A stretch of DNA of 11,222 bases, from the IMG/VR virus record IMGVR_UViG_2703719366_000012, one strand, 5' to 3'. A program made the position numbers. The stretch comes from a virus (taxonomy: Duplodnaviria; Heunggongvirae; Uroviricota; Caudoviricetes). Shown one piece after another: positions 6,001 to 11,222 of the stretch (its first letter is position 1; each line of letters opens with the position of its first letter).

Positions 6001-9000
6001 AGGGTGCCCCAGGCGATCGCCGCTGCGACAAAATCATCCACATCTTTCACCAGCCGATCCCTCCGTTCGACGATCTCACGGTAATATTCAGAGCTGTGAC
6101 TGCGCATACGGGCCACCAGCAGAGGCGGCATTGCCTTTTCGATCGCCGGTAACAGAGCCTGCATTTTTTCAACTGCATCAGGGGTGTCTTTCTCTATCCA
6201 GCGGAAAATTTTCTGGGTATTGCGAGCCAGGGCTTCCGGATGGCTGTCGTCGTACAGTTCAGGAAACGTCATACCCAACTCAAAATAAGCCTGGGTTATT
6301 CCAGCTGCCGGAACTTTTTCGCCATCAGGACGCGCCCAGGCATTCATCGCCATGCGGATGTGTTCATGCTTGATTTTCATGAATCCCCCCTTGGTTAGAA
6401 GGCGGATTATGATCAGAATCGGGAATGACAACCGTCGGTATGTGTAACTCATATTTGAGCGCCCCGGCAGTGACTGCCTGAATTAGCAACGCCCATTTCC
6501 ACGGAACGTCTTCCCCCCACATGCTGACTGTGGTTTTTGACGTTCCTAGAGCGGCGGCTGTTTTAACAACTCCGCCAAAATAGCCTAATACTTCTGATTT
6601 TTTCATGAGTCGCTCCATAAAACTGAACGCCAAAAGTTTAATAATCAAAACCAAAGAAAGTCAAGAAACAAAACCATCTGTGTTTTAAAATCAAAACATG
6701 AACAAGCAAACAATATCTGAACGCATAACCCAACGTATGCATGCGCTAAACTTGAAAGGCAAAGACCTTGTCAATGCCACTGGCGCATCAAAAGGCTCCG
6801 TAAGTCAATGGATGAACGGTGGAGGAGCGCCGTCCTCGCGTTACATAAGTTCACTGGCAAAGATATTGAAAGTAAACGAAAATTGGCTTCTTAATGGAGG
6901 AGAGTTAAATACAGGTGATTCGCTTGATCTATCTTTACCGCCGATAAAAACGGTTCCGCTACTATCACTTCAGCAGGCAGCAAGCTGGAGTGATTATATG
7001 AAAAATTCCTCAATAACCTCTTGTGTGCAGCTTGTCGGAGAAATCCCGGCCAATACCTTTGCTGTTGTTCTAGAGAGTGACAGTATGTCGACATCTGGTG
7101 GTGGAGTTTCCATCCCAAATGGTTCAACAGTTTTTGTTGATCCCGATCGAATCGTACAACCAGGAAATATTGTCCTTGCCTTACCCAAAGGGACCACAAC
7201 GCCTGTCATTCGCAAACTGGAGATAGAAGGGCCGGATATTCTTTTAGTCCCCACGAATCCTCGCTACCCTTCAATTATGCTGGATGATCTATCTTGCATA
7301 TTGGGAGTATGCTTTAAAATTCAACAAGATATTTAACCAACCTCATCTATTTGATTAACTGTATGCCATCGTAGTGATGGCGTAACAGCTGCCTGCTTAA
7401 AATGTTTTGATAAAAAAACATTGACCTTAAATGTTCGTTTTTCTAAACTTCATTCATTCCCTCACCCCGCCCCACAGAATGCAGGGCAATACTTCGAGTT
7501 ACCAGGCAGTGGTCAGGGGTTAAGTAGCCAGCCCGAGGCGTAAGAACATGACGGCAGGGTTCAACTTTAATAACTATGCAGCAGGTTTTTGTTCCGCTAC
7601 CCCGGCGTTAAGGGGAAATGAGGTCAACATGGATACGCTCAATCTTGGCAACAACGAATCTCTGGTATGTGGCGTGTTCCCCAACCAGGACGGTACGTTC
7701 ACCGCGATGACGTATACCAAAAGCAAAACGTTTAAAACTGAAGCTGGCGCGCGTCGCTGGTTAGCCAGAAACACTGACTGATGAGGTTGACGATGGAATT
7801 TAAAGATTTACCTCCTTCAATCCAGGAGATTGCAGCACACACACTTCGTCATCGTCTGAACGAACTTGAATTGGAATCGGTAACGAAAAAAGACACTGAT
7901 AATATGGCTCGTAATGTGCGCGATGCGTTTACCGGATTGTATTTCTGTGCGTCTATAAATAAACACGACTCAGAGAGTGTGGCAAATAAAATTGCAGAAA
8001 CGACAGCGCAAAACATCAATACGAAACCAACGGAAGAAGAAATTGATCAGTTTGCTCATGATGCTGGTTTAAAAAACAAGAAAGAAAAATCGCCATATGC
8101 GGGGAACATGTTTGTTTATGACAATCTCATCAGAATTCGTGGCGAAATTCCGGCGGAATACCTGGCAAGAGTCCATCAGGCATTGCTTAAAAATTTGGAA
8201 ACAGAATTATTTGATGGCAACACTAACGGTTTCTTCATGGTATCAGGCCTTGAGAAAGACTGGGATGCAGAAAAACGCTGGAATGTTGCTACATGGTTAT
8301 TCAGTAACAGAGCCGCTGCACTGGAAGCTTCGGCATGTATTTGCGGCCTGTTCTTAACAGACCACAAATATAATCTGGATGTGTACAGTTATATTTACGC
8401 TGAACACGGTCCACTCTGGATTGACTGGTAATTATAAGGAAACACCAGCAGGGCCGCGGCGACCAACAGAACGATTAAAATCAATAATGCCATTATAAAG
8501 GACATTATTTAATTTATCGTCGAATGCTGATTCTGTGAGCCTCAACTCTGAATGAGTTTTTAATAACCCTGATTGCCTGAGTTGATTTACCAGGCATTCA
8601 ATCTGTTTTTCAATAAGCGGATTTCTTTTTTTGTTTGGCATTTTATCCTCCATTGAGGTTCTGGGTTAAAAATGGAGACCAACACGCTGTCACGTGTGGT
8701 CGTGCGCCGGACACGGATAAGAATCCGGTACTGACAGTTTACTGAAAGGATATTTCCCTGAAAAGTCAGTGCATAACGCGAAAGCGTACGGCGAAGCTCT
8801 TTCCCTTAGAAGGCTTGTCGTTAGATTTCTTCGAACGTGCGCTTCCGGTTGTGGCACTCCGCGAAATGGCGCGGCGGTAAGTATGGCGGGGTTATTCCTT
8901 CCCCATTGAGGACACCGGGTTGTCAGGTTGACCATACGCTTAAGTGACAACCCCGCTGCAACGCCCTCTGTTATCAATTTTCTGGTGACGTTTGGCGGTA

Positions 9001-11222
9001 TCAGTTTTACTCCGTGGCTGCTCTGCCGCCCTTTTTAAAGTGAATTTTGTGATGCGGTGAATGCGGCTAAGCGCACGCGGAACAGTTAAAACCAAAAACA
9101 GTGTTATGGGTGGATTCTCTGTATCCGGCGTTAATTGTTAACTGGTTAACGTCACCTGGAGGCACCAGGCACTGCATCACAAAATTCATTGTTGAGGACG
9201 CGATAATGGAAACGTTATTACCAAACGTTAATACGTCTGAAGGTTGTTTTGATATTGGTGTTCTGCTCAGTAACCGGGAGTTTACTGAAGATGCCATTAA
9301 CATGAGGAAATATGAGCCTTATCTGCTCAATGATAATTCCATACTTTCCCGAATTGCTCTTCTTGAACTTGGTATTTTCGGAGAACGTCAATGACTTCAG
9401 CATTTGCACTGATGATGACGGTTTTTCTTATAACGGGTGAATCACAGAATGTGATTACCGGAATTTATGCCAGTAAAGAATCCTGCCTCCAGGCAAGAGA
9501 CGAGCAAAAAATTTCTGGTGAATGCCTCCCGGTAAAAAAAGTATCGCTGTACCTGAATAACGAAACACCGGCTGGATAACCCTCCAGCCATATTAACACC
9601 ATACCAACGGATTAAAAATGCCAGCAATGGCAGGGATTTGTTCACCCTTAAATCTGTAATGAGGTTTATCAATGAGCACTGATAAAGAAGAATTTGCGCT
9701 ATATTGCGAAGCAAAAAATGACAAAGTCAGAAAACGTCTGGGAATTAAAGGTGGTTTTTACTGGACTACAGCAAAAAAATTATCTGTTGCCATCTCCCGC
9801 TGCATTACCGCAATGGATGACAACGATTATGATGAAGACGACTTTAAAAAACCCGTTCGCGTCCATTTACCCGTTGTGAATGACCTTCCACCTGAAGGCG
9901 TGTTTGATACCGAATTCTGCAACCGATACGAAAAAGGCGGGGAAGATGGCATTACAATGGTATTTATCGCGCCCTCTCCCTCCGTGCAGGAGAAACCAGC
10001 CAGTACTGACAATACCAACGTCAACGGCGAAGACATGACGGAGATTGAGGAGAATATGCTCCTGCCGGTTTCTGGTCAGGAGCTGCCCATTCGCTGGCTT
10101 GCGCAACACGGCAGCGAAAAACCAGTAACGCACGTTGCACGGGAAGAACTTCAGGCATTACATATAGCACGGGCGGAAGAACTGCCGGCTGTTACTGCCC
10201 TGGCCATTTCTCACAAAACAAAGCTGCTCGACCCGCTGGAGATTCGCGACCTTCACAAACTGGTACGCGACACTGACAAAGTTTTCCCTAATCCCGGTAA
10301 TTCAGACCTGGGACTGATAACTGCTTTTTTCGAGGCATACCTGGACGCTGACTACACTGATCGGGGTCTGCTGACAAAAGAGTGGATGAAAGGAAATCGT
10401 GTTTCGCGTATCACCCGTACGGCTTCCGGTGCAAATGCCGGTGGCGGGAACAAAACCGATCGCAATCCGAATTTAGTACACACCTTCGATACGCTGGATG
10501 TGGAGATTGCAGCAGCCACACTTCCGATGGATTTTAATATTTATGAAATTCCGGGCAGCGTTTATCGTCGCGCAAAAGAAATCGTCCTGAAAAGAGAAAG
10601 TCCGTTCAAAGAATGGTCCGCAGCACTTCGCGCAACCCCGGGTATTCTGGACTATTCCCGCGCCGCTATTTTTGCACTTATCCGGAGCGCTCACCCTGAG
10701 TTTTATCACTACCCGGGACGCCTTCAGGGGTATATCAACGCCTACTTAACGGAGACTGATCACGAGAACCCCAGCAAGGAAACTCTCACTGCTGCACGAC
10801 ATACACCGGAAAAAGATATCCTGGAAGAAGTTAACCGCGAACTGTCTGCTAAGCAGGAAACAGAAGAAGAAAATGATGAAGAAAAACCGCAACCATCTTG
10901 CGCAATGGCAGAATGATAATCAGAAGAAATCTGGCAAAAGACCGTTTTACAGTACCAAAAACACAGGCGGGAACCAATCGTGTGATTCACCTTATTAAGC
11001 CCGCAATCGACGCTCTCCGGAGTCAGATGGCACTAACGAGACTGAGCAAAGAGCATATCATCGATGTTCACCTCAGAGAATTCGGCAGAACAGAGAAACA
11101 AAAATGTACCTTTGTTTTTCAACCTGAAGTGTCAGCGAAAGTAAAAAATTATGGCGACCATTTTACCGTTGACTCAATAAGGCAGATGTGGGACGCAGTG
11201 AACCGCCCCGGGTTTCCTGGAG

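Follow-up and report, generated by a model that had tools for sequence, protein, structure and literature searches.

The closest described relatives of the module considered here are the dicBF loci of Escherichia coli. In K-12 DicB, the N-terminus (~13 residues) and L5 are essential (the L5A variant is inactive) and K2 is replaceable, while toxicity survives loss of the last 8 residues and is abolished by deleting 12, 16 or 20 (Yang et al., PMC4967827). K-12 DicB is also reported to confer ManYZ-dependent phage resistance (PMC6832061), a remark of the first-pass annotation of the present sequence that is correct for K-12 DicB, and K-12 YdfD inhibits IspG, leading to lysis of dividing cells that is prevented by co-expression of DicB (PMC8835842). 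In pathogenic E. coli, including O157:H7 strains Sakai and EDL933, several dicBF copies are spread over different prophages (PMC5069750, PMC6832061, PMC7873438), and two reports describe four DicF copies in O157:H7 that are expressed microaerobically (PMC6832061, PMC7873438). Here, we analyze the dicF-dicB-ydfD module in IMG/VR virus record IMGVR_UViG_2703719366_000012, a stretch of 11,222 nucleotides that we refer to as a whole as the window. Several E. coli O157:H7 chromosomes (e.g. NZ_CP038421.1 and NZ_CP082835.1) contain the 11.2-kb window at 100% identity; there, it makes up the immunity and early region of a lambdoid prophage that is defective, and the module is the dicF-dicB-ydfD part of the early-left (PL-like) operon of that prophage. 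It is a well-described dicBF locus, i.e. a standard and already known multi-copy feature of prophages in enterohaemorrhagic E. coli (EHEC). Its DicB represents a second allele class, here called type B as opposed to type A of K-12, in which a K-12-like N-terminal part continues into a diverged C-terminal half, and which is, judging by its sequence, probably a functional MinC-dependent division inhibitor. The features on which this reading rests are as follows.

8701 to ~9303: leader of ~280 nt, dicF, spacer and dicB codons 1-33, together 93-100% identical to K-12
8701-8978, plus strand: non-coding conserved leader 5' of dicF, ~280 nt, the left part of the linker in common with K-12 Qin
8980-9031, plus strand: dicF small RNA (Rfam RF00039); the U-tail of the intrinsic terminator extends to 9036
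9037-9205, plus strand: dicF-dicB spacer, 97-100% identical to K-12, holding the dicB ribosome-binding site GAGGA at 9194-9198
9206-9394, plus strand: dicB, type B allele, 62 aa (WP_000449175.1; PF05358; NF049927)
9260-9280, plus strand: small variable patch at dicB codons 19-25, VLLSNRE in the window and VTISNPV in K-12 by per-codon comparison
9304-9612, plus strand: divergent mosaic block made up of codons 34-62 of dicB, the entire ydfD-like gene and a further 33 nt of 3' spacer, 30-70% identical to K-12
9391-9579, plus strand: ydfD-like gene (DUF1482; Pfam PF07358), type B, 62 aa, overlapping the dicB stop codon as ATGA
9613-9665, plus strand: right-hand linker, ~95% identical to K-12 though its flanks have diverged, with a small hairpin at 9619-9632 and the recE-like ribosome-binding region

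The first-pass annotation had reported dicF, dicB and a ydfD-like gene at this place, together with a DicB of K-12 length and a K-12-like N-terminus, and all of this was borne out. When window DicB was compared by BLASTP with its K-12 counterpart (taken from locus L002, NZ_CP011342.2), the two aligned in one piece and without gaps along their full 62 residues, with 39/62 identities (E value 4e-24), and residues 1-33 are identical at 27/33 positions (~82%). The same annotation had described the C-terminal half as differing entirely from K-12 and had proposed a pairwise alignment as a check; the divergence is indeed strong (12/29 residues, 41%, over residues 34-62), but the description is overstated, because the two proteins are colinear and ungapped to the end. 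Among codons 1-33, seven differ from K-12 and five of these lie within the codon 19-25 patch, whereas 25/29 of codons 34-62 differ. Of the 12 residues that nevertheless remain identical there, 8 are specified by different synonymous codons; residues kept through such synonymous changes include E37, L40, L41, I46, S48, L53 and L55. Residues 33-62 (13/30 identical) reach a BLOSUM62 local alignment score of 39, compared with 15.8 +/- 3.1 for shuffled sequences, and none of 5000 shuffles (0/5000) attained it. The proportion of differing synonymous sites (pS) in dicB codons 34-62 is 0.72, i.e. essentially saturated, with a non-synonymous divergence (dN) of ~0.74, and pS in ydfD is 0.63. On this sequence comparison, the C-terminal halves of window and K-12 DicB are homologous, colinear and anciently diverged.

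Identity to K-12, measured in 30-nt windows, is high on both sides of the 9304-9612 block, and the resulting map shows a mosaic anatomy in which a conserved cassette adjoins a diverged but homologous block. On the left, homology to K-12 begins near 8701, and further upstream the window and K-12 loci are unrelated. On the right, the 27-nt core of the linker between ydfD and the recE-like gene, ATGCCAGCAATGGCAGGGATTTGTTCA (9618-9644), which bears the hairpin, is found exactly in 78 of 179 fetched loci and in both allele classes, placing the variable block between two conserved linkers. Conserved linkers around a variable block are the classical set-up for module exchange by homologous recombination in lambdoid phages. 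A further E. coli locus (L095, CP117628.1) has the upstream genes of the window and is 96-100% identical to it from 7705 to ~9260; beyond this point, its DicB C-terminus is of K-12 type and its right arm differs from that of the window, with no return to window identity, and this switch marks a mosaic junction inside dicB. These observations agree with one of the two origins put forward in the first-pass annotation, a recombinant allele, and support that the window C-terminus arose by recombination within the gene and not by a frameshift. In the proposed mechanism, the diverged block formed by dicB codons 34-62 and the overlapping ydfD would be swapped by homologous recombination at the flanking conserved linkers. 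Which form of the patch a homologue carries (codons 19-25, or residues 16-25 in the survey of allele classes) does not follow its C-terminal type, as seen when P0005 and P0011 are compared with P0066-P0071. Between the classes, third-codon-position divergence is 0.075 for codons 2-18 (9206-9259) and 0.72 for codons 34-62, the estimate for the former part being biased because the fetched loci were selected by a motif over dicB codons 1-7; the leader-dicF-spacer region (8701-9205) is likewise near-identical. This low divergence of the leader-dicF-spacer region and codons 2-18 may reflect either a linker homogenized by recombination or constraint at the RNA level.

Among 120 listed of the 142 homologues in a 5.8-billion-protein database, three C-terminal classes can be told apart, with a few intermediates (e.g. 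P0058).

Type A (K-12): RK[QH]ERELLNKICI[VL]SMLARLR..KGC.Q
Type B (window): RKYEPYLLNDNSILSRIALL[EK]LGIFGE.Q
Type C (Citrobacter and others), related to type B: YEPYLLMDGSILSFLALNSLGVFKEE

Invariant in all classes are M1, L5, P6, N7, N9, T10, S11, G13, F15 and G18 in the N-terminal part and F26, D29, A30, I31, R34, K35, E37, S48 and A51 in the remainder, and types A and B fall into one cluster at 50% clustering. Of 5,426 complete E. coli genomes, 855 carry the type B block, which is found at 1,398 places and in up to four copies per genome, with the open reading frame (ORF) annotated as intact; 609 records hold a copy at least 99% identical to that of the window, and the type A block is present in 3,971 of the 5,426 genomes. 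The identical DicB protein is encoded by the E. albertii type strain and by at least 55 IMG/VR prophage contigs, and a 95%-identical protein is known from 12 deposited records of phages or prophages (PPompW and Stx2a-converting phages). In eight more phage records, among them mEp460, Tritos and HannyBb, DicB is more distant, at 65-72% identity to the window allele. The two types also occur together, both within one genome (loci L047 and L131 of genome 2690316210) and on one 96-kb prophage contig (L052 and L153, IMGVR_UViG_2654588054_000006). Type B DicB is a common second allele class that is already annotated as DicB, and about one E. coli genome in six is not represented by K-12 DicB.

The window DicB, DicF and DUF1482 gene each exceed the curated threshold of their family model over its full length and are, by sequence, members of these families. 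The dicB ORF starts with an ATG at 9206, 8 nt downstream of the GAGGA ribosome-binding site, and its stop codon ends at 9394. The protein matches Pfam PF05358 over 1-62/62 with 125.5 bits (cut-off 27) and NCBIfam NF049927 over 1-62/62 with 114.2 bits (cut-off 100), and in the identical O157:H7 records it is named 'cell division inhibition protein DicB' (WP_000449175.1) by the Prokaryotic Genome Annotation Pipeline (PGAP) and RefSeq. The cloning and quantitative PCR primers for 'dicB' in an O157:H7 deletion study match the 5' and 3' ends of the window allele exactly (PMC6915034). Its position, 3' of dicF and in ATGA overlap with the ydfD-like gene in a lambdoid early-left operon, is that of dicB. 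The family is narrow, as a profile search of 1.84 billion representatives returned 43 matches only, nearly all of them truncated or disrupted DicB, with no remote relatives and no link to Kil or KilR, and a scan of genome contigs for dicB returned 7 loci only, from Escherichia, Shigella and one 'Veillonella' metagenome-assembled genome (MAG) that is probably mis-binned. The latter locus (L005, JAGZPX010000007.1), binned as a Veillonella parvula MAG, has an E. coli-type dicF-dicB-ydfD arrangement and most likely lies on a mis-binned enterobacterial prophage contig. No solved structure of DicB was found by sequence search at E <= 10 or by Foldseek comparison of the AlphaFold2 model with the PDB.

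The dicF gene matches the full RF00039 model (positions 1-52) in cmscan with 75 bits, compared with a gathering score of 48 (E value 1.8e-15), and ends in a terminator-like hairpin followed by TTTTT (9014-9036). It differs from K-12 by a single substitution, A38G (G for A at 9017), which changes an A-U pair of the stem to G-U and is present in 17 of the fetched loci. The self-folding energy is -15.4 kcal/mol for window DicF and -15.9 kcal/mol for K-12 DicF, and the predicted duplex with the K-12 ftsZ leader (-60..+30) is equal for both at -38.5 kcal/mol; window DicF should act like that of K-12. The leader plus dicF RNA folds with a z-score of -3.04 relative to shuffled sequence, the 3' half of DicF being predicted to pair with the leader, and this structure fits the RNase III/RNase E processing of a polycistronic transcript described for K-12 (PMC10448788). 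Point variants of DicF among the fetched loci comprise, besides A38G, G11A and G11T. For 14 of the 99 dicB copies that the fetched loci contain (L093, L094, L096, L097 and others), dicF is unrecognizable within 450 nt upstream, indicating that dicB also exists apart from dicF.

The ydfD-like protein scores 56.3 bits against Pfam PF07358 (cut-off 25) and aligns with K-12 YdfD without gaps at 45% identity (E value 3e-20). Its C32 and C45 align with both cysteines of K-12 YdfD, which have been noted as conserved (PMC8835842). DicB type and YdfD type co-vary in 175/175 assessable loci, many of which are near-identical to each other: 94 are A/A, including two K-12-like loci with QEGELL, and 81 are B/B. 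Physical linkage suffices to account for this co-variation, given the gene overlap and the many near-identical loci.

In our preferred reading, which best explains the segment overall, type B DicB is likely to be a working division inhibitor whose mechanism is most likely that of K-12 DicB. In the underlying model, derepression of the operon would yield a transcript that is processed to DicF, DicF would pair with the ftsZ ribosome-binding site, and the downstream YdfD-like protein would be a lysis-causing, IspG-inhibiting partner whose lethality is offset by DicB. The N-terminal determinant is METLLPNVNTSEG in the window and MKTLLPNVNTSEG in K-12; the first 15 residues are identical save for E2, and L5 is kept, and this conservation of the essential residues argues for retained function; the first-pass annotation had considered an altered MinC or FtsZ-pathway interaction. 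The most divergent stretch, residues 54-62, overlaps the C-terminal eight residues that are dispensable in K-12, and the point at which conservation gives way to variability (codon ~33) coincides with the published functional split of DicB, whose N-terminus is essential and whose C-terminus tolerates more change. Between type B sub-variants, the ratio of non-synonymous to synonymous divergence (dN/dS) of dicB is ~0.12 (0.025/0.208), as expected for purifying selection on the protein. The expected effect of the C-terminal differences is a modulation of DicB activity, not its loss.

Several observations weigh against this reading. Residues 43-54, which are needed according to the K-12 truncations, are conserved in part only: I46, S48, A51 and L53 are identical and L47V and I50L are conservative, while D43/K, E54/R and L52/R alter the charge. 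The C-terminal half also lacks the basic character of the K-12 protein (net charge 0 versus +5; class means +0.45 for type B and +4.2 for type A), and type B has Pro38 in place of the Arg38 of type A. Moreover, the AlphaFold2 models differ between the types, albeit at moderate confidence only: window DicB (from a 32-sequence alignment) is modeled as all-helical with four helices (11-22, 24-36, 38-42 and 46-55; mean predicted local distance difference test score (pLDDT) 75.6, predicted template modeling score 0.53), and the protein with the type A C-terminus as having one long helix at 24-55 (pLDDT 63.6), a difference that is suggestive at most. Finally, the prophage itself is defective, with recE truncated and the integrase fragmented.

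In an alternative reading, the type B C-terminal half would be a functionally distinct module with altered affinity or specificity for MinC, ZipA-dependent septal targeting or ManYZ, such that types A and B would be non-redundant in a shared genome. The charge reversal is class-wide and extends to the whole protein (-5 in the window, +3 in K-12), Pro38 falls within the continuous helix of the type A model, the K-12 truncations show that residues 43-54 matter, both types reside in one genome and even on the same 96-kb contig, and the C-terminal type of DicB is always linked to the type of YdfD. However, the hydrophobic pattern and E37, L40, L41, N42, I46, S48, A51 and L53 are conserved, the overlap of dicB and ydfD explains the YdfD linkage, and the structure models are of modest confidence; taken together, we consider a distinct module unlikely. 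In a yet more speculative form, DicB would be a two-module protein with an invariant N-terminal effector and a swappable C-terminal helix that comes in at least two charge-opposed classes (a basic type A and a neutral to acidic type B with the helix-breaking Pro38), each inherited with its matching YdfD and differing in affinity for MinC, ZipA or ManYZ or in cross-talk with the cognate YdfD. We regard this form as doubtful; if true, EHEC genomes with both classes would gain non-redundant control of division and phage exclusion. The charge reversal is of use for mapping the contacts of DicB with MinC, ZipA or ManYZ.

The truncated recE, the fragmented integrase genes and the neighboring insertion sequence (IS) elements could suggest that the allele is a decaying, non-functional remnant within a defective prophage, and databases indeed hold many frameshifted or truncated dicB variants. 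Here, however, the ORF is intact, is preceded by a ribosome-binding site and remains coupled to ydfD through ATGA. The same protein recurs in E. albertii and on 55 or more prophage contigs, 609 records have the block at 99% identity or above, and phage records encode a protein that is 95% identical. Together with the within-class dN/dS of ~0.12, which speaks for continued selection, these points make decay very unlikely. The other origin considered in the first-pass annotation was a frameshift in dicB. Such an event in a K-12-like gene, alone or offset by further ones, had in its favor nothing but the identical length and a C-terminus described as seemingly unrelated, and it is hardly credible and was rejected: when both genes were translated in all frames, the remaining frames of either gene scored 13-16 compared with 39 in the annotated frame, the similarity there is in frame and ungapped with 8 of the 12 conserved residues retained through synonymous changes, and the nucleotide divergence extends through ydfD and 33 nt more, which is not expected from a frameshift. 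The present analysis contributes a precise map of the mosaic, the coincidence of the junction with the published functional split of DicB, and the C-terminal charge reversal; the finding is real but ordinary and carries little weight beyond annotation hygiene.

In the identical O157:H7 records, replication genes are followed by a Cro/CI-family regulator and the CI/LexA-type repressor. Next come a ydfA-like gene of the DUF1391 family, two hypothetical genes, dicB and the DUF1482 gene, and the series closes with a RecE-family pseudogene and then with integrase fragments and IS elements. The individual neighbors are as follows.

1446-1770, minus strand: hok/sok type I toxin-antitoxin module, with the sok antisense RNA matching Rfam RF01794 at 113.5 bits
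6698-7336, plus strand: upstream repressor, an open 212-aa ORF with HTH_3 and Peptidase_S24 domains, i.e. a cleavable repressor of CI/LexA type
7781-8431, plus strand: phrog_2151 gene, 212 aa, a conserved phage gene of unknown function
8432-8653, minus strand: phrog_4274 gene, 69 aa, a conserved phage gene of unknown function, antisense within the presumed operon
9672-10916, plus strand: truncated RecE-family (exonuclease VIII) ORF, 414 aa, the next operon gene after the ydfD-like gene

The RecE-family ORF matches positions 1-409/877 of NCBIfam NF007259 (619.6 bits, cut-off 1269) as well as Pfam Exonuc_VIII and is labeled by PGAP as a pseudogene without its C-terminus. It is the N-terminal half only, followed in the full records by integrase fragments and IS1203, and the prophage is therefore defective at that end. 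In the identical O157 records, a coding sequence of the Hok/Gef family is annotated at 1446-1601, and PGAP covers just the last 113 aa of the repressor ORF (6998-7336), as 'LexA family protein'. A promoter scan of the window found sigma-70-like sites to be no more numerous than in shuffled sequence, and a candidate dicBp-like site at 7421-7449 is unsupported.

Lambda Kil and Rac KilR, division inhibitors of prophage early-left operons, resemble DicB in their analogous role and in an analogous PL-type operon position beside recombination genes, but no sequence relationship to DicB was detected; Kil targets FtsZ in a ZipA-dependent manner and not via MinC (PMC3961180). Relative to the K-12 dicBF operon, which is controlled by the DicA repressor, the window has the CI/LexA-type repressor with an S24 peptidase domain, and if its long form is real, the dicBF operon of the window may be SOS-inducible, unlike its K-12 counterpart. 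Where K-12 has ydfB/ydfC, downstream of the ydfA-like gene and ahead of the dicF leader, the window has the phrog_2151 and phrog_4274 genes. The ydfD-like protein has the size, hydrophobic N-terminus and two cysteines of the Qin lysis protein YdfD as well as the overlap with the dicB stop codon, but is only 45% identical to it, and PGAP gives it no more specific name than 'DUF1482 family protein'; lysis and the inhibition of IspG have been demonstrated for K-12 YdfD only and would extend to the window protein by homology. Window DicF shares with the known DicF small RNA (RF00039) the full-length match, the terminator hairpin and the predicted ftsZ-leader pairing energy, and carries A38G, which is absent from K-12 DicF. 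Finally, DicB of the Qin (Kim) cryptic prophage (WP_000854559.1) differs from window DicB in residues 34-62 (just 41% identical), in the net charge of the C-terminal half (+5, and 0 in the window), in Arg38 where the window has Pro38, and in the residue 19-25 patch. It is colinear with window DicB over 62 aa at 63% identity, nearly identical in the N-terminal 15 residues including the essential L5, encoded at the same position between dicF and ydfD with the ATGA overlap, and preceded by DNA that is 93-100% identical from the leader through codon 33.

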